The notes under the pieces: model-generated
Databases searched by the model: none
Told to the model about the DNA's origin: nothing
What the model saw: only the letters and a program-made list of their open reading frames with translations
From: a virus
Taxonomy: Duplodnaviria > Heunggongvirae > Uroviricota > Caudoviricetes
Strand: one strand, 5' to 3'
Virus record (IMG/VR): IMGVR_UViG_2534682078_000030
Length of the DNA: 30,947 bases
In this document: positions 1-27,275 of the stretch, in pieces
Layout of the letters: every line of letters begins with the position of its first letter
How positions within the stretch are numbered: the stretch's first letter is position 1
Program-made: the position numbers and the translations under genes

Positions 1-22
1 GTATATTTATCTCATGGCTTGT

Positions 23-1000
23 TGAACCGCCCCGGGTTTCCTGGAGAGTGTTTTATCTGTGAACTCAGGCTGCCAGATCATCGTTTCCGATGGAAGCATA
101 ATAAGCTTTTTCTGCTTCTGCCGGAGGAGTATGGCCCAGCCTTCCCAGCAATCGTCGATTGTTATACCAGTCCACCCACGTTAGTGTGGCCAGTTCCACT
201 TCTGCACGGTTTTTCCAGCTCTTACGGTGTATTACCTCCGCTTTGTAAAGACCATTGATGCTCTCAGCCATCGCGTTGTCATACGAGTCGCCTGTACTCC
301 CTGTTGATGCCAGTAATCCGGCTTCTTTTAGTCGCTCCGTATAGGCCAGTGACACATACTGAGAGCCTTTATCGCTGTGATGGATGGTGCCAGACGGACG
401 ACGGGCCCACAACGCCTGCTCCAGCGCATCCAGCACGAATGTCGTTTCCATAGACGATGAGACCCGCCACCCCACGATGTATCCGGCAAACACATCAATG
501 ATAAACGCCACATAGACGAAGCCCTGCCATGTGCTGACGTAAGTAAAATCAGCCACCCACAGCTGGTCAGGTCGTTCTGCCACGAACTGACGGTTTACGC
601 GGTCGCCTGCGGCAACGGCTTTCCGGCTGATGGTCGTACGGACCTTTTTACCCCGGAGAACACCGGCAAGTCCCATAACCGCCATGTTACTGCGGCGCAG
701 TTCACGATTTTCACGTTCCAGCTCTTTCAGACGCTGACGTTCAGCGCTGGTGAGCCCACCATCACCGCCCCCGGTATCCCGCTCATGCTGGCGAACCCAG
801 ACACGCAGAGTCTCCGGCGTACAGCCAATCTTTGGGGCAATGGAACAAATTGCCGCCCACTGTGAGTCATATTCATCCTGACTTTCCAGAACCATACGAA
901 TCGCCCGCTGACGGACTTCGGGGGAAAAACGAGTATTTTTAGTCATCCTGTTTACCTCTTTCTCAGGGAGTTTAGTCTCCAGGATTTCCGGGGCGGTTCA
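23..1000 (-). mobile_element. IS3-family insertion sequence (IS629/IS1203-like), copy A, 978 bp, internally deleted
   Basis: Termini match copy B: TGAACCGCCCCGGGTTTCC from 23 (right end, reverse orientation) and GGATTTCCGGGGCGGTTCA ending at 1000 (left end). It is 332 bp shorter than the 1310-bp copy B; the junction at 685/686 joins orfA codons ...RRSN to orfB codons MAVMG. Flanking triplets TGT (20-22) and TTC (1001-1003) are not a direct repeat. Confidence 0.85.
65..946 (-). CDS. IS3-family transposase, in-frame OrfA-OrfB fusion created by the internal deletion (293 aa)
   Basis: First 86 aa are identical to OrfA of copy B ([19 protein letters not shown]...RELRRSN) and the remaining 207 aa are identical to the C-terminal part of OrfB of copy B ([14 protein letters not shown]...NDDLAA). 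The programmed-frameshift window and OrfB N-terminus are missing. Confidence 0.8.
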
Positions 1001-2412
1001 TTCAGGAGGACCGCCACGAGCTGGGCGATGACATAACTCCGCGTTTTAAGGCGGAGTATGTCGACGGCTCAAAAGGCACACCAACCAGCTACATCGCCAC
1101 CTACATCGGAAAGAACCTGGACAGCCGCGCCGTGGATGGCATCGACCCGAAAACGGGCAAGCCACGCGTTGACCACGAAACCGGAAAATCAATGGCCGAG
1201 AGCGTGGAGCGCGCCATCGGCTGGGCGCGCCTTCACCGGGTCCGTCAGTTCCAGTTCTTTGGCATCCCCTCCCGTCAGGTGTGGCGTGAACTGCGCCGCC
1301 TTGCCAGCCAGATGGCACGCAATCCGGAAGGCCCGCAACGGCTGAAAGATGATGCAATGGATGCGGTACTCGCTGCCGCCGATGCCGGGTGTTTTGCCAC
1401 CTACATTGAAAAACAGGGCGGCGTACTTGTTCCACGCAAAGACTACCTGATTCGCACCGCCTACGACCTCGCAGATGAGCTGAATGATTACGGCGAACAG
1501 AGCGTACAGATTTACGGGATCTGGTCACCACTCATCGGGGAATCCTCCCGTGTGTGCACGCATCCGGATAACTGGAAACTGGTAAGACGTAAACCGGAAA
1601 CGGAAGACAGCGCCCGCGAAAATGGTTTTGACCTTCAGGGCGGCCCTGCCGCCCCTTGGACTCGTGGCAATAACTGTCCCCGTGTACAGGAAACGGACAA
1701 CAACGGGGCAGAACAGCCGGAAGAACGGCCAGCACCGTGGCCGCAGCTCCCTGACGGCGTTGAAGTGAACGAATGGATGCGCTCACTGAAACGGCACGAA
1801 CGCCGGGCGCTGATGCGTTCGCTTCGTGACAAACAGGCAAAAAACAGCAGTGATGAAATGCAGAGCTGGACACAGAGCCGCAAACAGCAGCGGCCTTTGC
1901 CTGATAACCACGAATTACTCGCTAAAGAATGGCGGGAGTCTGCCGAATCTCTCGGCCTGCATATCGGTGAACAGCAGATGCAGCACCTGCTACGGGGCGG
2001 CAGCCTGTACGTTGACGGCAGCATCATTGCACCGCAGGGATATGAAATTGTACGCAAACCGGATACCCGCCCGGACAGCCGAATCACGCAGCTCTGGCAG
2101 CACCTGAGCCGTAATCACGGCGTAAGCAGCACGGAGATCCGCCATAACCCGGTCGCCAGCTATCTGGCACAGCTGGGGGCATCAGACCCCGAAGCCGCCG
2201 CACGCCTGGCATCCGCACTTCAGCAGGATCAGAACACCATGAAAACACCCGTTACCGTGCTTTCTGACATGCTGCGCGCCATCCGCGACGCAGAGCACGC
2301 ACAGAGAATCAGTGAAACCACTGAACGCGCCAGCCGCAAAGCAGACCTGCTGCAGGGTGGCCTGACCAGTGGAAACAAAAACAGACAGAAACGGGACTCA
2401 CGAATCCCGTAA
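1001..2412 (+). pseudogene. A: Replication initiator gpA-like (rolling-circle Rep with paired catalytic tyrosines), 5'-truncated by IS copy A
   Basis: Open frame starts at the IS boundary with no start codon (QEDRHELGDD...). It contains the Y-x3-Y motif SYIATYIGKN typical of the P2 A / phiX174 A nickase family and sits upstream of the Q-P / O-N-M-L head cluster as in P2-like phages. About 470 codons remain. Confidence 0.7.
2391..2410. repeat. 20-bp palindrome ACGGGACTCACGAATCCCGT, copy 1 of 2, overlapping the gene A stop
   Basis: Inverted arms ACGGGAYT / AATCCCGT read directly in the sequence; repeated 73 bp downstream. Confidence 0.6.
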
Positions 2413-16738: not shown

Positions 16739-18871
16739 ATGAGTACCACAACACGAAAATTTAAAACCGTTATCACCGATACAGGTGCCAAAAAATTAGC
16801 TCAGGCAGCCGCGCCAGATGGTAAGCCTGTCCGCCTGACTCATATGGCCGTGGGCGACGGTGGCGGCGCGTTGCCCACACCAGACAGTAAGCAGACCCGT
16901 CTGGTGCATGAGGTGTGGCGACACACTGTTAATCGCGTCATCCTGGACGCAACACATCAGAACCGCATTATTGCGGAGCTGGTTATTCCTCCAGAAACGG
17001 GCGGATTCTGGATCCGGGAAATTGGTGTGTTTGATGAGCACGGCGATTTAATCGCGGTGGGCAATACTGCCGAAAGTTACAAGCCAGCCGTTGCCGAAGG
17101 GTCCGGACGTGCACAAACATTTCGCACCATTCTGACCGTATCCAGCACTGCCACTGTGGCGCTTACCGTGGATAACACCATGGTGATGGCCACAGTGGAT
17201 TACGTGGATAACAAACTGAAAGAGCATGAACAGTCACGACGTCACCCGGATGCCTCGCTGACCGCAAAAGGCTTTGTTCAACTCAGTAGCGCCACTAACA
17301 GCGATTCTGAAACGCTGGCTGCAACGCCGAAAGCGGTTAAGGTCGCGTATGATCTTGCTAACGGAAAATATACAGCGCAGGATGCCACAACAGCGCGAAA
17401 AGGCCTTGTCCAGCTTAGTAGTGCAACCAACAGTACATCTGAAACGCTGGCGGCAACTTCAAATGCAGTAAAAGCTGCCTATGACAATGCTGAAAAACGT
17501 CTGCAGAAAGCTAAGAATGGTGAGGATATCTCTGATAAAGACACCTTTACGAAAAATATCGGTGCCTGCCGTGCATATAGTGCAGAGCTGAATATTGGTG
17601 GAGATAGTGAAGCATGGACAACTGCGCAGTTGATTTTTTGGCTAGAGAGTCAGGGGGCATTTAACCATCCTTACTGGATGTGCAAAGGCTCATGGGCTTA
17701 TGCAAATAATAAGGTCATTACAGATACAGGTTGCGGAAGTATTTGTCTTGCAGGTGCTGTTGTGGAAGTTATTGGCACCCGCGGCGCAATGACCATACGC
17801 ATTACCACACCGAGTACATCCAGCGGTGAAGGCATCCCTAATGCTCAATTTACTTATATTAATCATGGTGATGCTTATGCTCCTGGCTGGCGAAGGGACT
17901 ATAACTCCAGGAATAAGCCAACAGCATCAGAGATCGGGGCGTTACCGTCAGATGGGACAGCAGTATCGTCAGTTAATCTGGCTTCAAAAGGTCGGCTGAC
18001 CGCCCTGACAGATAATATGCAGGGGGCCACAGGTCTGGAGTTATACGAGGCGTATAACAACGGATATCCAACAACGTATGGAAATATCATTCACCTGAAA
18101 GGGATGACAGCCGTTGGCGAAGGCGAATTACTCATCGGCTGGAGTGGTATAAGCGGTGCTCATGCTCCGGCATTTATTCGTTCACGACGGGATACGACCG
18201 ACGCAAACTGGTCGCCGTGGGCGCAGCTTTACACCTCGGCTCATCCTCCTGAAGAGTTTTATCCAGTCGGTGCACCGATTCCGTGGCCATCAGATACCGT
18301 TCCGTCTGGTTATGCCCTGATACAGGGGCAGACTTTTGACAAATCTGCATACCCGAAACTTGCAGTCGCTTATCCGTCAGGCGTTATTCCTGATATGCGT
18401 GGCTGGACTATCAAGGGCAAACCTGCCAGTGGTCGTGCCGTATTGTCTCAGGAACAGGACGGCATTAAATCGCACACCCACAGCGCCAGCGCATCCAGTA
18501 CTGATTTGGGGACGAAAACCACATCGTCGTTTGATTACGGTACTAAAACGACCAGTTCATTTGATTACGGCACAAAAACCACAAATAGCGCAGGAGCTCA
18601 TTCACACAATATACCTGTTGGTCACACTGGCGCGGGGAATGGTGTATCAGCCGGTTATAACGCTGCGTTAGGTACAGGTACCACGTCGAGCGCAGGAGGG
18701 CATGCTCACAATGTATATATCGGTGCCCATAACCACACTATCGGCATTGGTGCTCATGCCCATTCTGTCATTATTGGTCCCCACGGACACACCATCACCG
18801 TTAATGCTACGGGGAACGCAGAAAACACCGTAAAAAACATCGCATTTAACTATATTGTGAGGCTTGCATAA
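16739..18871 (+). CDS. H: Tail fibre protein (P2 gpH family) with divergent His-rich C-terminal receptor-binding region
   Basis: N-terminal 250 aa align with P2 gpH ([15 protein letters not shown]...[10 protein letters not shown]...[17 protein letters not shown]...). C-terminus has tandem [10 protein letters not shown] repeats and HxH motifs. Confidence 0.9.
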
Positions 18872-19447
18872 TGACATTCAGAATGAGTGAACAATCACGG
18901 ACCATAAAAATTTATAATCTACTGACCGGAACCAATGAGTTTATTGGTGAAGGTGATGCATACATTCCACCTCATACAGGTCTGCCTGCAAACAGTACCG
19001 ATATTGCCCCGCCAGATATTCCGGCTGGCTTCGTGGCCGTTTTCAACAGTGATGAGGCATCGTGGAATCTCGTTGAAGACCATCGGGGAAAAACCGTCTA
19101 TGACGTGGCTTCCGGCGACGCGTTATTTATTTCTGAACTCGGTCCATTACCGGAAAATGTTACCTGGTTGTCGCCGTATGGAGAGTATCAGAAGTGGAAC
19201 GGCACATCCTGGGTGAAAGATGCAGAAGCAGAAAAACTGTTTCGGATAAGGGAGGCGGAAGAACAAAAACAGCCTGATGCAGGTAGCCAGCGAGCATATT
19301 GCGCCACTTCAGGATGCCGTAGATTTGGATATTGCAACGGAGGAAGAGGCATCGTTACTGGCTGCATGGAAGACATACCGGGTATTGTTGAATCGTGTTA
19401 ATACAGCGGTAGCAGCGGATGTTGAGTGGCCAGTCGCCCCACAATAA
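18871..19447 (+). pseudogene. G: Tail fibre assembly chaperone (gpG/Tfa family), frameshifted at an A5 run (19265-19269)
   Basis: Frame 1 ends at 19401 with an atypical Cys-rich tail. The -1 frame from the A run encodes the conserved Tfa C-terminus [58 protein letters not shown], ending at about 19447. Confidence 0.6.
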
Positions 19448-19490: not shown

Positions 19491-20063
19491 CTATTTATAC
19501 AATACAACACCGCTCTTTTTAGTTATATATGTGCAGTTCGATGGTATATCTTTATTTATAAAAGACATTGCACCTATTTTTACATTATCCCCAATTTTAC
19601 GTGATAATCCAATGATGCAACAATTAGCTCCGATATCAACGTTACTACCAATTTTTACTCTTGAACCAGGCATGTCACCATCTATCTGTCCAATGGTAGT
19701 ATTCTGTCGTAACACCAGATTTTCACCAGCATCAACAGCAAAATGAACAACAATTCCAGCATGATGGGGAATTGTTAACCCTTTTCCAATATTTGCGCCC
19801 AATCCAATTTCACAACCAAATTTGTTAATTATTTTACTGTTTAACTTTTTGGCTGCTTTCTTATGTAATTTATTACCATTAATATACATTTCGTTAGCCA
19901 ACCGCCACCAGAAAAGGAAATTCCGGTTACGCTGTTTTTTCTCTCTTAAAAGCCTCCAGATATCCATACGTTTCCGCCGAATTACTTCATATTTCCAGAA
20001 GTTTTTTAAATTAGTAGAGTCCCCAAATAAAACAAAGTGAATTGCCATTAAGTAAGACAGCAC
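19491..20063 (-). CDS. Hexapeptide-repeat (left-handed beta-helix) acetyltransferase, cargo gene at the Z/fun position
   Basis: Repeated [LIV]-G-x-x-x-x hexads (IGLGANIGKGLTI, VKIGSNVDIGANCCIIG, KIGDNVKIGAMSF); AT-rich. Likely GTG start at 20063 with SD AAGGAG (the tracked ORF starts at 20096). Confidence 0.7.
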   Translation of the reverse strand: MLSYLMAIHFVLFGDSTNLKNFWKYEVIRRKRMDIWRLLREKKQRNRNFLFWWRLANEMYINGNKLHKKAAKKLNSKIINKFGCEIGLGANIGKGLTIPHHAGIVVHFAVDAGENLVLRQNTTIGQIDGDMPGSRVKIGSNVDIGANCCIIGLSRKIGDNVKIGAMSFINKDIPSNCTYITKKSGVVLYK

Positions 20064-20114
20064 GATAATCTCCTTAATTATTATTTCAGACCACACATAT
20101 TATAAGGTTAAGAG

Positions 20115-20219: not shown

Positions 20220-20714
20220 TCAGAGCAGCCCCTTAACTGAGCTGGTCGCGCTATTAAGGGATGATGTCACCTTATCTTTGAAGCCGGACAACATATCGCT
20301 GAACGATGAGGATTGCAGGCGCTCCCGCAAATCCTCATCACAGCGTTCAAGAGTCAGTGAAAATTCTATCTTTTTCGCCTTACCGTAGCGATCAAACTCG
20401 GAGCGGGTCGTATTCGTTCCGGTCAGGACATACATGCCGTAAATCTGCCCGACACCATCAATCAGAGGCCAGGGGCGTCCTGTATATGCCTGCGTGGTCA
20501 GCAGAGACAGCGACACTTCGCCACCTGTAATTTCAGGATAAAGCACGCCGGAAAGCACGATGCGATCATCACCTGCACCGATATACTGCCAGCTTGCTGA
20601 ACGGTTAACACGTTCATTTTTCACATGCCGCCAGCTTTTGTTTTGCTGTAACTGCTGATGCGGCAGTGTGCGCAGCTCAAAAACAAACATGCCGTAGATC
20701 ATCATCATGACCAT
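20220..20714 (-). CDS. U: Tail protein (P2 gpU family)
   Basis: 164 aa; YGMFVFELRTLPHQQLQQNKSWRH resembles the gpU N-terminus; directly downstream of the tape measure gene. Confidence 0.85.
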   Translation of the reverse strand: MVMMMIYGMFVFELRTLPHQQLQQNKSWRHVKNERVNRSASWQYIGAGDDRIVLSGVLYPEITGGEVSLSLLTTQAYTGRPWPLIDGVGQIYGMYVLTGTNTTRSEFDRYGKAKKIEFSLTLERCDEDLRERLQSSSFSDMLSGFKDKVTSSLNSATSSVKGLL

Positions 20715-20720
20715 GACTCC

Positions 20721-23537
20721 TCAATCTTTATCGTAAAAACTGCCACGTCCGGCACGGGCGCGCCGTTCCATCTCTGCCCTGACCATTTCACCGACCAGTT
20801 TCGCCAGTTCGCGGGGATTCTGCGTAACAACGTTATGCAGATGAACATGAATTTCACCGCCAAATCCGGAGGCAACAGGCTCCCGGTTACGGGAAGTTAC
20901 AGGAACTGATGCCACTGGAGATCGTATGGCCTCCGCCACCGGGCGGGAGCTGGCCGCAACAACAGGGACCAGCGCCGGAGGCAGCGGAGCCGGGACCACG
21001 GGTGTGATATTAATTGCGGGGGCAGGCTTACTGACCTGCGCAATCTTCCGCTCCTGCCACTCCCCACGAACAGCAAGTGCGCGGGGCAGGTTCTTAAAGA
21101 CAATATCGCCAGGGCCAATGCGTTTTTTCGTCTCATCAACCAGCTTACCTGTGTTATCAGCAATTTTGCTGAGTCTGCGTAGCGTCCCGGTATTGCTGTC
21201 TGTGAGCGGTTTGTTGTCTTTGGGTTTATCACCTCCGGTGCCATTGCCATTTTCCACAGGCTTCGGCGGATTGATTTTCGCCAGGTCCCCCTGAAGTAAG
21301 GCAACCTTATCCTGAAGAATGGCCGCACGCTGTGCGTCTTCGATTTTCTTGCGCGCCCTTTCCGCTTCATCCGGAAGGACGCCAAGTTTTTCAAGTATCC
21401 ACGCCAGCGTATCCAGTAGCATTTTTGCAGGTGTCAGAACAAGTTGTAACGCACCGCCAAGAACGTTACCGAATATCTCGCCAGCACTGGTACATTTATC
21501 CAGCGTTTCCTTGCTGGACTCCATCGGTGACAGCAGCGATTTAAACCAGTTAAACACCTGGCTGATCCCGCTTCCGATTGCGTCAAAAACAGGGCCAAAC
21601 CGTTCAAAGGTTTCACGCAACGGGTTCAGCCTTTCCATAATCCCGCTGAACACCCCGGCAAAAAATGCCCTGATGGGATCCCAGTATTTCCAGATAAGGA
21701 CGGCAGCTCCGGCAAGCGCAGCCACGATAAGACCAACCGGACTGAACAGCGCCCCGATAGCGCCTCCCAGTAAAGAAACGGAACCCGTCACCATTCCCCA
21801 TAGTGCTGGCAGGACCCTGACAGCATTCATTGATCCGGTCAGGAGAGAAAAACCAAGACGCAGTTTTGCCAGCGGACCAGCAAGCACACCAATAGCCAGC
21901 GACAACGAGCCAACCGTTGCAGTCATTGCCAGCAACGCACCGCCTGCTATCAGTAGCTGGCGCGTCAGTGCCGGATGGGCCTGCGCCAGCGCCGTCACCC
22001 TTGATACCACCCGCGTGAGCCACTGCGTGACAGAACGCAGCGGACCGTCAATCAGATCTGCAATGCGGATGCGCAACCCTTCCCATGCACTGCCGAGTGA
22101 TTTCAGATCGCCGTCAAGGTTGTTGGCCATAACCTTTGCTGTGCGTTCAGCCTCACCGCGCGCGCCTTCAAGTTCTTTTCTCAGTTTGGGTAAGGAACCG
22201 TCACCCGCTGCATCAACGAGCGCCATAAACGATGTGAAAGCCTCTTCTCCGGCAATGTCCTTAAAGAACGATACCCGGTCAACTTCCCCGTATTTGCGGG
22301 TGGCTTTATAAAGGTCGGCCAGCACATCCTCCATCGGGCGCATTTTGCCGTTCGCGTCAGAGACTGCCACACCAAGCTCTTTCAGCGCCTCTGCTGCCGC
22401 CTTTGGCGGTGATGCCAGACGAGCCAGGCTGGCACGCATTGCCGTCCCGGCATCACTTCCCCTGATACCCATATTCGCCAGCACGCCCGCCATCGCTGCG
22501 GCCTGCTCCAGCGATATTCCCAGCTTGCCCGCCACCGGACCTGCATATTTCATGGTTTCGCCCAGTGCGCGAAGGTCAGTGTTGGTACGGGTAAACGCTG
22601 CGGTGAGCGTGTCACCGACCCGGTCCATCTGGTCGGCAGAAAGGCCGAACTGCGTCAGGATGTTTGAGCCAATATCCGCCGTCTCGCCGAGATCCATACC
22701 GCCAGCCGTTGCCATGCTCAGCACACCGGGAAGCGCAGCCTGAATGGCCTGTGGTGTGAAGCCAGCCATTGCAAGAAATGCCTGGCCACTGGCGGCATCG
22801 CCTGCGGTGAACTGCGTTTCAGAGCCAAGTTTTAACGCCTGCTCACGCAGCGCCTTAAACTGTGGGCTGTTCTGGTCGATTCGCGTCAGCGCCTGAACGC
22901 GGGACATCTCTTTCCCGAACCCGATCGCAGGCTGCAAAAAACGCCCGGCAGCATAGCCGCCCGCCGCTGCCGCACCAATTGCCAGCGCACCACCTGTTTT
23001 CAGTTTTCCCGCGGTTTCCTGCGCGCGCGAATACCGCTCACGCGCCCGCGTTACACGCGCAAGCGCCTGCCGTTCGCGTTCAAGCTGGTTGTTGTACTGT
23101 TCGGTGCGTCTGATGGCCTGCTGGATGGTGTTATCGCTGCCTGTCAGGGAAATGCCGTGGCGTTTCAGTTCTCCGCCAAGTTCCCGCATTTTCTGAATTT
23201 CCCGTGTGCGCGATTCATTCAGGCGTTCAAGCCGGGTGCTTAACTGCTGCATCAGCTTTTGTTGTTTTTCGCTGAGCACTGTACCCGTGCGTTGTAACTG
23301 ATTAAGGGCGTTAAGCTGGCGTCGTGCTTTCACGATACCCGCATCCGCTTTACTGACAGCGTCGCGGGCGCGCTCAAATGAACGCGCCTGACGCTCGAGA
23401 TTTTTGATCGCCCCCTGCGTTCGCTGGATGGAGTCACCAAACTGCCCCATCAGGCGGCGGGCGTTTTCGGCAGGCCGGGTCAGCCTGTCAACGGCGCTGA
23501 AAGCGACCCGGATATCAAGAGTCTTCATTATCTGCAT
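20721..23537 (-). CDS. T: Tail tape measure protein (P2 gpT family)
   Basis: 938 aa, coiled-coil N-terminal half and Ala/Gly-rich hydrophobic central region; follows E/E'. Confidence 0.9.
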   Translation of the reverse strand: MQIMKTLDIRVAFSAVDRLTRPAENARRLMGQFGDSIQRTQGAIKNLERQARSFERARDAVSKADAGIVKARRQLNALNQLQRTGTVLSEKQQKLMQQLSTRLERLNESRTREIQKMRELGGELKRHGISLTGSDNTIQQAIRRTEQYNNQLERERQALARVTRARERYSRAQETAGKLKTGGALAIGAAAAGGYAAGRFLQPAIGFGKEMSRVQALTRIDQNSPQFKALREQALKLGSETQFTAGDAASGQAFLAMAGFTPQAIQAALPGVLSMATAGGMDLGETADIGSNILTQFGLSADQMDRVGDTLTAAFTRTNTDLRALGETMKYAGPVAGKLGISLEQAAAMAGVLANMGIRGSDAGTAMRASLARLASPPKAAAEALKELGVAVSDANGKMRPMEDVLADLYKATRKYGEVDRVSFFKDIAGEEAFTSFMALVDAAGDGSLPKLRKELEGARGEAERTAKVMANNLDGDLKSLGSAWEGLRIRIADLIDGPLRSVTQWLTRVVSRVTALAQAHPALTRQLLIAGGALLAMTATVGSLSLAIGVLAGPLAKLRLGFSLLTGSMNAVRVLPALWGMVTGSVSLLGGAIGALFSPVGLIVAALAGAAVLIWKYWDPIRAFFAGVFSGIMERLNPLRETFERFGPVFDAIGSGISQVFNWFKSLLSPMESSKETLDKCTSAGEIFGNVLGGALQLVLTPAKMLLDTLAWILEKLGVLPDEAERARKKIEDAQRAAILQDKVALLQGDLAKINPPKPVENGNGTGGDKPKDNKPLTDSNTGTLRRLSKIADNTGKLVDETKKRIGPGDIVFKNLPRALAVRGEWQERKIAQVSKPAPAINITPVVPAPLPPALVPVVAASSRPVAEAIRSPVASVPVTSRNREPVASGFGGEIHVHLHNVVTQNPRELAKLVGEMVRAEMERRARAGRGSFYDKD

Positions 23538-24053
23538 TCCCGCTGCGAAGTGCCGCCCGCTCGCGCCAGCTAACCACTTCGCCGGGCGTCATCATGAAGA
23601 TTTCGGCGGGCGACCAGTTAAAAATGGCGGCAATATCCGCCACCAGATCTTCGATGTGCTCAAAGCACACCAGGGTGATTACGCTGCCGTCTCCTGCACG
23701 CTCTTCGCGCCAGAGTCTGGCTCGCTCATAAAATTTACAGCCACTGCGCACAACTGAATAAAATCGCGTGACGACATTTTTTTAATCATCACTTCATCCA
23801 GTCGTGGCGAGGTCACGCGAGGCAACAGCGTAAACATGGTATCCGCTTTCAGATTCAGCACATCAGACAGCGACAGACCACGCAGGGATCCAGCCTGCTC
23901 AATAGCCCCGGTGATCTCCACATACGTGATTTTTTCGCCACCACGCTCAATTGGTCGGGTCAGTTTTACGCCACGTTCGACAGCCATATCCTCACCTGCC
24001 GTCACATCACCCGCCACGGTGTTATTCCGGGTTTCAGTATCGATGTCTTTCAT
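23515..24053 (-). CDS. E': Tail assembly chaperone E+E' made by programmed -1 frameshift
   Basis: The -1 frame is open from the A7 run to 23515 and encodes ...FMMTPGEVVSWRERAALRSG, resembling the conserved E' C-terminus; overlaps the start of T as in P2. Confidence 0.6.
23679..24053 (-). CDS. E: Tail assembly chaperone (P2 gpE family)
   Basis: 124-aa ORF upstream of T; contains the A7 slippery run (plus-strand T7 at 23777-23783). Confidence 0.7.
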   Translation of the reverse strand: MKDIDTETRNNTVAGDVTAGEDMAVERGVKLTRPIERGGEKITYVEITGAIEQAGSLRGLSLSDVLNLKADTMFTLLPRVTSPRLDEVMIKKMSSRDFIQLCAVAVNFMSEPDSGAKSVQETAA

Positions 24054-24108
24054 CAGTTGTCTCCTTTTCAGTCAGAGGCGACGCACTGCGCCGCCTGCAT
24101 ATTACTTA

Positions 24109-24621
24109 TCAGCCAAGCCCAAGCGCGGAACGGATACGGTCAGGCACAATGTCCTTGCCGTCCTTCCGGTAAATGAAGTTCAGCAGGTCAATCTCCCACA
24201 ACGGGCGATCGTTAACACTCAGCTTGTAGTAGGTGTTTTTAATGGCGTAAGTGTGTGATGTGGCTTCGCCCTGTTTGGCTTCCCCCATATCAATTTCCGT
24301 CACACGCCCGCGCATCTCGATTTCATACAGATCGCTTTCTGCATCGGTGTAGTATTCACCCACAAAACGCAGCAGCGTGCCGTCAATCGTGCCGCCATAC
24401 TTAAGGAACAGCGCACGAACAGCTCCCCCCATGACAAAACTCGCATCAAGCGCGGAGTCGTCCAGACCGAGATCAATACTTACCGCACCCATCATGCCGC
24501 CCCCCCGGTAGCTGTCGGTTTTGCGCGTCAGTTTGGGCAGAGTGACGGACGTCACCTTACCCACTTCGTTTTCACCATCCACAAACAGCGTAAAAAAGCG
24601 AAGATGTTTTGGTACAGCCAT
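24109..24621 (-). CDS. FII: Tail tube protein (P2 gpFII family)
   Basis: 170 aa; VTLPKLTRK...YRGGGMMGA...DLGLDD matches the gpFII N-terminal pattern. Confidence 0.9.
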   Translation of the reverse strand: MAVPKHLRFFTLFVDGENEVGKVTSVTLPKLTRKTDSYRGGGMMGAVSIDLGLDDSALDASFVMGGAVRALFLKYGGTIDGTLLRFVGEYYTDAESDLYEIEMRGRVTEIDMGEAKQGEATSHTYAIKNTYYKLSVNDRPLWEIDLLNFIYRKDGKDIVPDRIRSALGLG

Positions 24622-24836
24622 CAGGCACCTCCCAGCACCGCAAATGCGGGTTCAAAGTATTCATCAGTAAACGTCTGGTAAAGCTCCATGTCTTCCAGTG
24701 GCGGAACGGGCGTATATTTGTAGCGAATACGCACACGCCCCTGACGTAAATCCGTGGTGCTGTTATCCACCACGTCATACCAGCACTCCGCGCCAATCAG
24801 TTTCCCGGCAGTAACCAGTGAATCCAGTTTTGCCCT

Positions 24837-24839
24837 GAT
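24837..24839. repeat. Target-site duplication GAT, left copy
   Basis: Triplet immediately 5' of the IS terminus TGAACCGCC; identical to 26150-26152. Confidence 0.8.
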
Positions 24840-24893
24840 TGAACCGCCCCGGAAATCCTGGAGACTAAACTCCCTGAGAAAGAGGTAAACAGG

Positions 24894-25220
24894 ATGACTA
24901 AAAATACTCGTTTTTCCCCCGAAGTCCGTCAGCGGGCGATTCGTATGGTTCTGGAAAGTCAGGATGAATATGACTCACAGTGGGCGGCAATTTGTTCCAT
25001 TGCCCCAAAGATTGGCTGTACGCCGGAGACTCTGCGTGTCTGGGTTCGCCAGCATGAGCGGGATACCGGGGGCGGTGATGGTGGGCTCACCAGCGCTGAA
25101 CGTCAGCGTCTGAAAGAGCTGGAACGTGAAAATCGTGAACTGCGCCGCAGTAACGATATCCTTCGCCAGTCTTCCGCTTATTTTGCGAAGGCGGAGTTCG
25201 ACCGCCTCTGGAAAAAATGA
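24894..25220 (+). CDS. IS3-family transposase OrfA (helix-turn-helix, leucine zipper)
   Basis: 108 aa, [41 protein letters not shown]..., which I recognise as IS629/IS1203 OrfA. Confidence 0.9.
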
Positions 25221-26107
25221 TGCCACTGCTGGATAAGCTGCGTGAGCAGTACGGGGTCGGACCGGTATGCAGCGAACTGCATATTGCCCCGTCAACGTAT
25301 TACCATTGTCAGCAACAGCGACATCATCCGGATAAACGCAGTGCCCGTGCGCAGCACGACGACTGGCTGAAGAGAGAGATACAGCGCGTATACGATGAAA
25401 ATCATCAGGTGTACGGTGTGCGTAAAGTCTGGCGTCAGTTGTTACGGGAAGGAATCAGGGTGGCCAGATGTACAGTGGCACGTCTCATGGCGGTTATGGG
25501 ACTTGCCGGTGTTCTCCGGGGTAAAAAGGTCCGTACGACCATCAGCCGGAAAGCCGTTGCCGCAGGCGACCGCGTAAACCGTCAGTTCGTGGCAGAACGA
25601 CCTGACCAGCTGTGGGTGGCTGATTTTACTTACGTCAGCACATGGCAGGGCTTCGTCTATGTGGCGTTTATCATTGATGTGTTTGCCGGATACATCGTGG
25701 GGTGGCGGGTCTCATCGTCTATGGAAACGACATTCGTGCTGGATGCGCTGGAGCAGGCGTTGTGGGCCCGTCGTCCGTCTGGCACCATCCATCACAGCGA
25801 TAAAGGCTCTCAGTATGTGTCACTGGCCTATACGGAGCGACTAAAAGAAGCCGGATTACTGGCATCAACAGGGAGTACAGGCGACTCGTATGACAACGCG
25901 ATGGCTGAGAGCATCAATGGTCTTTACAAAGCGGAGGTAATACACCGTAAGAGCTGGAAAAACCGTGCAGAAGTGGAACTGGCCACACTAACGTGGGTGG
26001 ACTGGTATAACAATCGACGATTGCTGGGAAGGCTGGGCCATACTCCTCCGGCAGAAGCAGAAAAAGCTTATTATGCTTCCATCGGAAACGATGATCTGGC
26101 AGCCTGA
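25217..26107 (+). CDS. IS3-family transposase OrfB (DDE catalytic domain)
   Basis: 296 aa in the -1 frame relative to orfA, normally expressed as an OrfAB fusion by frameshifting at the A run. Confidence 0.9.
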
Positions 26108-26149
26108 GTTCACAGATAAAACACTCTCCAGGAAACCCGGGGCGGTTCA

Positions 26150-26152
26150 GAT
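26150..26152. repeat. Target-site duplication GAT, right copy
   Basis: Triplet immediately 3' of the IS terminus ...GGGCGGTTCA. Confidence 0.8.
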
Positions 26153-27275
26153 GGCACTGATAACATCCTTCACGTTCGCAGGCGTCAGTGGACTGTCGAT
26201 GGTTTCAAACTGCGCTTCCGCAATTGAATCAGCAAGCACCTGTGCGGTTCGGGTATACACCTCAAAGATGTAGGCGTTCGTTTCCGGTGTGCGGTTGCCC
26301 CAGAAGCGGAACCCGTTGCGACGAATAATGGTCGTGATTTCTTTGTTGTTGAGGCTGTTGGCATCGCTGTCTTCGGCCTGCAACGACCAGAACACATGCC
26401 TCGACATCCCCAGCACATTTTTAACCGGAACGTTGGACAGTGATTTGTGCCAGCCCTGCTCATGGTCAATGTACGCACGAAGGCCGCACGCATAGGCAGG
26501 CGCGGGGAACGTTTCGTTTTTGCCACTTTTCGGGTTGTAGGCGATGAAGTCCGGCCATAAGAGCATCACCTCACGTTCGTTGAATTTCTGGCGGTAGGTA
26601 ATCGCCTCAGCCATCGTGTTACAGCCGTGACATGAGGCATACACAAACGCGCGCAGTTTACCCGCAATCACGCACAGGGATTTTGTTACCGCCTCCGTGT
26701 CCAGCTCCGGCGCGGCCAGAATACGCGGACGGTATCCGATGCTTTCATCCTGCTCTGCAACAAGCAGCGCATACATCCCCGTATAGCTGCCGTCAGATTC
26801 AGAACCACCGATAACCAGTTGATCCTGCGTTTTTCCGTCTTCTTCTTTATGTTCAGCCACGCGAACGACGATCACCTTTGTGCTCACCTGGTCTGCGATG
26901 GCCTTAAGCGCACGATAAAGCGTCCCCGTTGTTCCGCATTTTCCCAGCACGTCATTGACGCGGGTCAGCAGTGTGGGCTTGTTCAGCGGGAACAGCTCCG
27001 CGTCCGCATCATCCGCCGTTGCCACGATACCGATAACACTGGAATCAACATCATTAATCGCTGTTACCAGGTCGGTACTTTCCGTAACACGGGCACCATG
27101 AAAACGAGTTTCACTCATAGCTTCAGCCCCTTGTATCCGTTAAATGATTCGGCAACAATCATCACCCACCACGCGCGTAATCTCACCCCTGCGCCGTTCT
27201 CCCGCCCCGGCGACAACAAAAAGCAGTAACCCCCTCCGCACGCACATGCGACCATGCCGCACAGGGAGGGAGCAG

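Follow-up and report, generated by a model that had tools for sequence, protein, structure and literature searches.

The tail fibre gene and its neighbours

The window, by which we mean the whole stretch of 30,947 nucleotides of viral DNA analysed here, carries a tail fibre gene on the plus strand at 16739..18871, encoding 710 amino acids plus a stop. This assignment draws on the ORF call and on matches to Pfam, the PDB and the PHROG tail fibre families. Its product has the same sequence as RefSeq WP_000108519.1, which comes from a P2-like prophage of E. coli O111:H- 11128. The genes upstream match Baseplate_J and Tail_P2_I in Pfam, in agreement with the reference annotation. Directly downstream, also on the plus strand, a tail fibre assembly (Tfa) chaperone gene lies at 18871..19401 (Pfam Caudo_TAP PF02413, phrog_105).

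Judged by its sequence, the fibre is a mosaic. Its N-terminus is of the P2 gpH type; fibre repeats and a middle domain resembling Mu S' follow, and the tip is of the lambda Stf / T4 gp37 type. The predicted baseplate-attachment domain at 16754..17197 (aa 6-153, plus strand) matches Pfam PF12571 Phage_tail_fib with an E-value of 6.9e-54. With this N-terminus and its location after J and I, we class the protein as a P2 gpH-type fibre. Two tandem Phage_fiber_2 repeats of 44 residues follow at 17255..17518, plus strand (aa 173-216 and 217-260; PF03406 in 2 stretches, E 2.6e-39), and the copies have 25 of 44 residues and 74 of 132 nucleotides in common. A first reading of this DNA, made without database searches, had noticed a duplicated 31-residue segment at 17280-17470. 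It was right, and what it saw are these two Pfam copies; the VQLSSATNS core of the duplication starts at 17276 and 17408, and 23 of the 31 core residues are shared. It is also at these repeats (query nucleotide 538, about aa 180) that the DNA starts to resemble lambdoid side tail fibre genes. The middle domain at 17483..17950, plus strand, was found by phmmer against the PDB (8ju3_A, E 3.3e-95); in the best stretch, aa 249-404 closely resemble residues 177-332 of the Mu fibre construct in PDB 8JU3.

Architecture of the tip

The tip starts with a collar (knob) domain at 18257..18472 (aa 507-578), on the plus strand like all the parts that follow. Pfam PF07484 Collar matches aa 511-558 (E 7.8e-11, 42.2 bits, cut-off 24) and the domain aligns to the collar of PDB 2XGF, the receptor-binding tip of T4 gp37 (Bartual et al. 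2010). The sequence-only reading had set the start of its tip feature at 18336, which is off the fibre frame and coincides with the start of a spurious ORF of 111 residues in another frame. We reject this ORF (18336..18671, plus strand) together with another at 18668..18877 on the minus strand; both lie wholly or almost wholly within a strongly conserved coding frame.

The first HxH motif, HxH-1 (SHTHS, 18473..18481, aa 579-581), is predicted to be the first metal site; it lies at the foot of the outgoing strand and aligns to KAHSHS in T4. H579 and H581, which are H79 and H81 of the query fragment, are invariant across 130 aligned homologues. The outgoing needle strand then runs through three tandem decapeptides at 18509..18598 (aa 591-600, 601-610 and 611-620), seen in the translation and by TRF, which reports a period of 30, 2.3 copies and 75% matches. 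These three repeats had been recognized before at 18511-18600; they are present, but the span needs correcting to the one given here, and the third copy is degenerate, conserved in its first half only, while copies 1 and 2 are identical. HxH-2 at 18599..18607 (aa 621-623) is the predicted last metal site before the head and corresponds in position to T4 H929/H931, iron ligands that are essential for function (PMC6957217).

Next comes a hypervariable loop of 31 residues at 18608..18700 (aa 624-654), picked out by column entropy and predicted to be the surface that contacts the receptor. Four HxH motifs with an exact 9-residue period make up the returning strand at 18701..18790 (aa 655-684), as seen in the translation and in homologue conservation. 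The C-terminal strand at 18791..18868 (aa 685-710) would return into the collar, and its last 16 residues are identical to those of T4 gp37 and lambda Stf.

There are thus six HxH motifs, at aa 579, 621, 655, 664, 673 and 682, two on the outgoing and four on the returning strand. The five HxH and GxH motifs listed in the sequence-only reading are all there, but it overlooked SHTHS upstream of the repeats. Chance does not readily give such a number: composition-preserving shuffles of the protein contain 0.85 HxH on average, and six or more turned up in 1 of 20,000 whole-protein shuffles, and never when the last 210 residues were shuffled 20,000 times. The histidines of the motifs are invariant or nearly so across 33 and 130 homologues. 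We found no use of the phrase 'His box' in the literature searched.

Assignment of the tip

We are highly confident that in this P2-type prophage fibre the last 204 residues (aa 507-710) form a receptor-binding tip of the lambda Stf / T4 gp37 type. In a phmmer search of the PDB, they match 2XGF end to end with an E-value of 3.9e-77, covering chain residues 28-242, and they are 65% identical to lambda orf-314, the Stf C-terminus. A T4-type metal-binding tip had been predicted from the motifs alone, and this direct homology bears the prediction out. We found this module in 348 phage records, among them T4-like, lambdoid, P1-like and P2-like phages. It is ordinary and already known, and the form seen here, with six predicted metal sites, is a short one that is common.

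Structure prediction adds to this mainly through the fold search. An AlphaFold monomer built from a 33-sequence alignment had an overall pLDDT of 48 and was unusable. One built from 130 sequences reached 65.7 overall, with a good collar (about 88-94 at model residues 11-50, aa 511-550), a poor needle and a head below 50; the second model also had raised confidence in strand 204-208, the C-terminal strand. A monomer cannot represent an interdigitated trimer, and the metal-binding beta structure was therefore assessed indirectly, through homology and Foldseek. Foldseek with the monomer model gives 2xgf_A as the sole significant PDB match (E 2.2e-17, probability 1.00, 66% identity, TM-score 0.45).

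One could argue instead for a domain of the T4 gp12 short tail fibre type, with a collar and a single metal site rather than a long needle. Short tail fibres are indeed matched weakly (9cuy_c, E 2.1e-8; in Foldseek also 1ocy and 5lye, confined to the collar), and the PF07484 Collar domain is common to both kinds of fibre. We give this idea almost no credence, since 2XGF is matched far more strongly and from end to end, and six HxH motifs with an identical C-terminus are features of gp37 and Stf.

Two papers describe the T4 gp37 tip as a collar, a needle and a head, with the chain doubling back at the head and seven Fe ions held by HxH motifs (PMC6957217, PMC12609058). By homology to that structure, three chains of our fibre would come together in a collar, followed by an antiparallel needle of six strands. 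On its way out each chain would pass HxH-1, then the three decapeptides, then HxH-2; it would turn in a small head and come back through the four HxH motifs spaced 9 residues apart. Each HxH triplet, two histidines from each of three chains, would hold one axial metal ion, so that we predict six ions for this tip where T4 has seven Fe. The decapeptides and the histidine array would be the conserved structural scaffold, with the aa 624-654 loop as the hypervariable head that touches the receptor. Folding and trimerization would depend on the lambda Tfa-type chaperone encoded directly downstream.

It has also been proposed for fibres bearing HxH that the array serves chiefly to carry iron, letting the phage exploit iron-uptake receptors, with any structural role secondary ('Ferrojan' or Trojan horse; PMC11705849). 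This strikes us as extremely improbable here. The T4 irons are buried along the needle axis, their histidine ligands are needed for folding and function, and the mapped receptor contacts in the T4 head loop bind LPS and OmpC rather than siderophore receptors (PMC6957217). We see no connection between this locus and iron uptake.

Where the tip varies

The tip had been called a hotspot for host-range variation, and this is true of one part of it. Among 70 distinct tips of the same class, mean column entropy reaches 1.98 bits at aa 624-654, whereas all the other segments lie at 0.16-0.72 bits. Variability is therefore concentrated in the loop of 31 residues that joins HxH-2 to HxH-3, at the position equivalent to T4 residues mapped to LPS/OmpC binding (PMC6957217). 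The decapeptides and the histidine array are conserved scaffold, contrary to the sequence-only reading, which had included them in the variable part.

As that reading had anticipated, the number of repeats is not invariant across relatives. The 170 distinct tips have 2, 3 or 4 decapeptides and 5-8 HxH motifs, with three decapeptides in 98 of the 170 (the window's own tip counted). It could be claimed from such differences that the tip is a contingency locus, with decapeptide and HxH repeats prone to slippage or recombination and the copy number itself acting as a host-range switch. Tetart et al. reportedly described in 1996 how the host range of T4 widened through duplications in the adhesin domain of gp37, which we counted in its favor. 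Nevertheless, we consider a contingency locus very improbable. The peptide-identical copies 1 and 2 have just 22 of 30 nucleotides in common, every difference being synonymous, so the decapeptides are not a slippage-type polymorphism. TRF detected the decapeptide array alone and found no array over the HxH units. All of the 17 closest homologue clusters (at least 92% identity) keep three decapeptides; the number differs only between deep architectural classes, and there it is compensated on the other strand.

It is important to realize how strict this compensation is. An extra outgoing decapeptide is almost always paired with an extra nine-residue HxH unit on the returning strand, and in 168 of the 170 distinct tips the outgoing span exceeds the returning one by 13-16 residues, whatever the needle length. 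Mirrored changes of this kind point to rare exchange of whole cassettes under structural constraint, and not to frequent slippage. A constant offset is also what we would expect if the two strands pair in register, so it gives indirect support for paired strands.

We also considered and rejected an invertible tip or one diversified by a DGR. The reference annotation and the ORFs around the fibre gene contain no Gin/Cin-type invertase and no DGR reverse transcriptase. The sole pair of inverted repeats near the tip is 20 nucleotides long with an 85% match, consistent with chance and not convincing.

Is needle length quantized?

The coupling between the strands leads us to a speculative idea, one we think is rather less likely to be right than wrong, that this tip family obeys a quantized building rule. 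Each outgoing GTKxxxxFDY decapeptide may pair with one returning 9-residue HxHxxxIGx unit, and each outgoing 14-residue HxH module with a returning 14-residue HxH module. Paired additions of modules would therefore yield needles of discrete length. The outgoing and returning spans do fall into two series, 32/18, 42/27 and 52/36 in the first and 46/32 and 56/41 in the second, with one more metal site per step; the window's fibre would be the 42/27 'short' form. We found no statement of such a strand-coupling rule in the literature searched. If it is true, needle length may be tuned to the thickness of the host LPS/O-antigen layer, and repeat number would join the head loop as a second determinant of host range. 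It would also be a design constraint for chimeric fibres, in which any gain or loss of a decapeptide should go along with that of a return-strand HxH nonapeptide.

The chaperone gene and the state of the prophage

In the window, a 2-bp deletion at 19263 shifts the frame of tfa. The correct frame is kept up to aa 131 of the 192-residue reference and no further, and Caudo_TAP matches over profile positions 1-73 of 131 only. The intact reference Tfa (O111) is 88% identical to lambda Tfa. An IS1203-like element at 24840-26149, with terminal inverted repeats of 25 nucleotides, splits the sheath gene; the reference has no such insertion. Because of the frameshift and this insertion, this strain probably does not build the fibre into particles.

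A stronger claim would be that the fibre is a remnant: an intact ORF whose product cannot be folded or mounted in a decayed prophage, and which is at most recombination material for other phages. We find the arguments evenly balanced. The deletion replaces the conserved C-terminal part of Tfa and the sheath gene is broken, as described. Another IS copy adjoins a replication endonuclease gene annotated as incomplete in the reference, where the gpD-like gene is only 801 nucleotides long and the tail genes lie on the strand opposite to the fibre genes. The stf-tfa part has 87% nucleotide identity to lambdoid phages, so recombination with them is possible. Against this, the ORF of 710 residues is uninterrupted and identical to the reference allele, and a compatible Tfa could be supplied in trans by a co-resident phage. 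A search of 5,426 complete E. coli genomes did not turn up the 2-bp deletion even once, so an error in sequencing or assembly could have produced it. Whether the fibre is a remnant concerns its function in this strain and does not conflict with the structural assignment.

Significance

We believe these results carry little weight beyond annotation, and they resolve no open question. They do allow the generic label "phage tail protein" to be replaced by a precise one, a P2-type fibre with a lambda Stf/T4 gp37-type tip. The predicted receptor-contact loop at aa 624-654 could be of use in predicting or engineering host range, for instance with prophages or tailocins of E. coli O111/STEC.

Comparison with known systems

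The tip is about 64% identical to that of T4 gp37 over 204 residues, and both have a collar, HxH motifs on the outgoing and returning strands, a small head at the turn, and the same 16 residues at the C-terminus. They differ in that T4 has seven HxH motifs to the window's six. The T4 pair of 14-residue modules, GGHTHS... and HSHTF..., is missing from the window tip, which has no counterpart of the GGHTHS metal site. Conversely, the window tip has three decapeptides and four 9-residue HxH units where T4 has two and three. From the first to the last HxH, the window spans 42 residues outgoing and 27 returning, compared with 46 and 32 in T4, so we infer a slightly shorter needle. The head loops, 31 residues in the window and 34 in T4, are largely unrelated in sequence, and because of this the receptor is not inferable from T4. 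The N-terminal part is P2-type rather than T4-type and the chaperone is lambda Tfa-like.

The long and short tail fibres of the Felixounavirus Bas63 have gp37-like tips with a collar, a six-stranded HxH needle and a head; they carry six or seven di-histidine motifs, and HxH number and needle length differ between the fibres (PMC12609058). Genomes of Felixounavirus size (about 86-88 kb) match the window tip at only about 35-45% identity, mostly over half of the query or less, and the virion context is not that of the window fibre.

Lambda Stf (orf-401/orf-314) with Tfa (orf-194) has about 89% DNA identity over the last 1.1 kb or so, including tfa. Its tip, like that of the window, carries three decapeptides and, on the returning strand, four HxH motifs at close intervals, but lambda has eight HxH in all, one extra 14-residue module per strand and a 45-residue head. 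Lambda Stf sits on a siphovirus tail, whereas the window fibre has the baseplate-binding N-terminus of P2 gpH. With P2 gpH/gpG the fibre shares the PF12571 N-terminus and the gene order J-I-H-G of a P2-like morphogenetic cluster. It differs from P2 gpH from about aa 180 on, where it is of lambdoid Stf type and Mu S' type, and its distal tip is the HxH needle of gp37 and Stf.

The fibre gene and its origin

The tail-fibre ORF (16739..18871, plus strand) encodes 710 residues, with the tip features in its last quarter. Pfam places a P2 gpH-type N-terminal domain (PF12571) at aa 6-153, two Phage_fiber_2 repeats at aa 173-216 and 217-260, and a Phage Tail Collar domain (PF07484) at aa 511-558. The two Phage_fiber_2 copies share 25/44 residues and 74/132 nt, and they account for the upstream duplication claimed in an earlier reading of the sequence alone. 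Genes for baseplate J and tail protein I lie upstream; on the downstream side, the next gene has its Pfam match in the Caudovirales tail fibre assembly protein family. The protein is identical to RefSeq WP_000108519.1, labelled only "phage tail protein", and the window is near-identical to the P2-like prophage adjoining ihfA/pheST in E. coli O111:H- 11128, our reference.

Sequence matches show the fibre to be a mosaic. A Mu fibre construct, PDB 8JU3, is the match for residues 249-404 (E 3.3e-95). Side tail fibre genes of lambdoid phages share about 87% identity with the DNA that begins near nt 538 of the gene and runs to the end of tfa, which encodes the tail-fibre assembly chaperone Tfa. The lambdoid nucleotide similarity starts inside the first Phage_fiber_2 repeat (the repeats occupy 17255-17518, aa 173-260), so the conserved repeat may have served as the recombination joint that brought a P2-type N-terminus to a lambdoid-type shaft and tip. 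Two other ORFs overlap the tip, one of 111 aa in another frame (18336-18671, plus) and one of 69 aa on the other strand (18668-18877, minus). Both are most likely spurious because they lie wholly or almost wholly inside a strongly conserved coding frame. The start of the 111-aa ORF is also where the sequence-only reading began its tip region (18336).

The tip and its fold

We believe that aa 507-710 very probably form a receptor-binding tip of the lambda Stf/T4 gp37 type, with a trimeric needle, six metal ions, a head loop and Tfa-assisted folding. They align over their full length with the crystallised T4 gp37 tip (2XGF, E 3.9e-77), which bears out the T4-type HxH tip proposed by the sequence-only reading. 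Identity to the lambda Stf C-terminus is 65%, and T4 gp37, lambda Stf and the window's fibre have the same last 16 residues. The AlphaFold monomer built on a 130-sequence alignment has a confident collar, with pLDDT about 90, and a weak needle and head. When Foldseek compares this model with PDB, 2xgf_A alone is significant (E 2.2e-17, TM 0.45, 66% identity).

Translation of the plus strand gives a first decapeptide at aa 591-600, an exact copy at 601-610 and a half-conserved third unit at 611-620. Together they cover DNA 18509-18598, a few bases from where these consecutive repeats had first been placed, and Tandem Repeats Finder describes them as period 30, 2.3 copies and 75% matches. There are six HxH motifs, at aa 579, 621, 655, 664, 673 and 682, the last four with an exact nine-residue period. 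The last five had already been listed and are real; SHTHS at aa 579, upstream of the repeats, had been overlooked. Protein shuffles contain 0.85 HxH motifs on average, and at least six occur in 1/20,000 whole-protein shuffles and in 0/20,000 shuffles of the last 210 residues.

In T4, according to papers citing its structure (PMC6957217; PMC12609058), the gp37 tip consists of a collar and a needle that has six strands because every chain reverses its course at a small head, seven Fe ions lie along the needle axis coordinated by HxH motifs, and the LPS/OmpC contacts map to head residues directly after H929/H931. The positional equivalents here are HxH-2 (aa 621-623) for H929/H931 and aa 624-654 for the head. 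By this homology the fibre would form a trimeric collar and six-stranded needle stabilised by six axial metal ions, each held by the two His of one HxH motif from each of three chains; we infer both the binding and the identity of the metal. The decapeptides would make up the outgoing strand (with HxH-1 and HxH-2 at its ends) and pack against the four returning HxH units, the loop at aa 624-654 would be the receptor-binding head, and the Tfa encoded downstream would assist folding. The head differs from that of T4 except at a few Gly, Ile and Tyr positions, so the receptor cannot be named.

Coupling of the two strands

The sequence-only reading had proposed comparing repeat number among relatives, and architectures do vary. 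We collected 267 homologues, 120 from a 90%-identity cluster search and 147 more from a 50% representative library; with the T4 gp37 tip and the window's own they give 170 distinct complete tips. The window's form, with 2 outgoing and 4 returning HxH motifs and three decapeptides, is found in 89/170. The T4 form (3 + 4, two decapeptides) accounts for 41, a 2 + 3 form with two decapeptides for 13, the lambda form (3 + 5, three decapeptides) for five, and four decapeptides with five returning HxH for two. Other small combinations make up the remaining 20, mostly where a simple count of G[TS]K units differed.

The residues between first and last HxH on the outgoing strand exceed those on the returning strand by 13-16 in 168/170 tips, at any total length. 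The outgoing/returning spans fall into two series, 32/18, 42/27, 52/36 and 46/32, 56/41; four tips are 52/36, all of the four-decapeptide form. The exceptions are P0107, whose degenerate motif AHTY was misread by the parser, and P0260, which differs strongly in its outgoing strand and is probably misparsed too. Each outgoing decapeptide is thus accompanied by a returning 9-aa HxH unit, and an outgoing 14-aa HxH module by a returning one of 14 aa. An antiparallel needle whose two strands must keep their register would be expected to show this pattern. In relatives with two decapeptides there are exactly three closely spaced HxH units on the returning strand, and in those with four there are exactly five (32/18 in homologues P0186 and P0193; 52/36 in P0190 and P0191). 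The head loop is between about 29 and 67 residues long among relatives, and the longest, 67 aa, occurs in the short-needle 32/18 class (P0186, P0193).

Where the variation sits

Among 70 distinct tips of the window's own class, mean column entropy is 1.98 bits in the head loop (aa 624-654), 0.16, 0.50 and 0.72 bits in decapeptides 1 to 3, 0.51 bits in the returning HxH stem, and about 0.3 bits in the collar and C-terminal strand. A host-range hotspot in the tip had been predicted, and the head loop is the candidate for it; the repeats and His array are conserved (0.16-0.72 bits). The two identical decapeptides share 22/30 nt with every difference synonymous (for example TCG versus AGT serine codons), and three units are present in 17/17 of the closest homologue clusters (at least 92% identity). 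On these grounds we reject a slippage-prone array, and the same observations argue that the decapeptides are an old, selected scaffold.

The state of the prophage

The fibre ORF is intact in the window. Its tfa (18871-19401) has a 2-bp deletion at 19263 relative to the reference, and the frame shift after aa 131 replaces the last 61 of 192 residues with 45 out-of-frame residues. The region lost is described as the part of Tfa proteins that is helical, conserved and responsible for trimerisation (PMC9608196). A search of 5,426 complete E. coli genomes found the deletion in none of them (best match 97.6% over 81 nt); it therefore reflects either decay specific to this strain or an error in sequencing. 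This strain probably does not build the fibre into particles, except if the frameshift is such an error or another source provides Tfa in trans.

An IS1203/IS629-like element of about 1.31 kb (24840-26149) interrupts the tail sheath gene. Its terminal inverted repeats are 25 nt long and 88% complementary, and it has an apparent 3-bp target duplication; the reference has none at this site. A second copy at the left end of the window (1-1006) adjoins a truncated replication endonuclease gene and, compared with the reference copy, is missing 331 bp internally, including the programmed-frameshift region. The reference annotation has this endonuclease gene as incomplete and the gpD-like gene, which comes after the tail genes, as short (801 nt). 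The tail genes (U, tape measure, E', E, tube and sheath; 20220-27118, minus strand, L001 21484-28336) lie on the opposite strand to the fibre genes, a block we take to be inverted relative to the canonical P2 order. A small pseudogene fragment sits at its junction, and no inverted repeats flanking it were found. Between tfa and the tail genes, a hexapeptide-type acetyltransferase gene (19491-20096, minus) has a GC content of 0.33-0.38 against about 0.50 for its neighbours. RefSeq calls it a serine O-acetyltransferase, and it matches phrog_2154, whose function is unassigned. The gene resembles a moron and may act in surface modification.

Comparison with known tips

The tip module is common among phages. 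By tblastn, 348 phage records contain at least 80% of its length, among them Tequatrovirus, lambdoid, P1-size and P2-size genomes, and at E ≤ 0.001 it matches about 1,700 representatives of 50%-identity clusters. Earlier papers trace the distal part of T4 g37/g38 to lambda (PMC3157838), note that lambda and other phages conserve the HxH motifs (PMC11705849), and report that gp37-like tips vary in HxH number (six or seven) and needle length (PMC12609058). The module is already known, and the window's protein is already in RefSeq. The only new element, and a mildly new one, is the explicit quantised coupling of outgoing decapeptides to returning HxH nonapeptides, for which we found no earlier statement in the accessible literature; it is a structural corollary and no new kind of system. 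Compared with T4, the window's outgoing span is 4 aa shorter, its returning span 5 aa shorter, and there is one metal site fewer, whereas lambda exceeds it by 14 aa in each span and by two metal sites.
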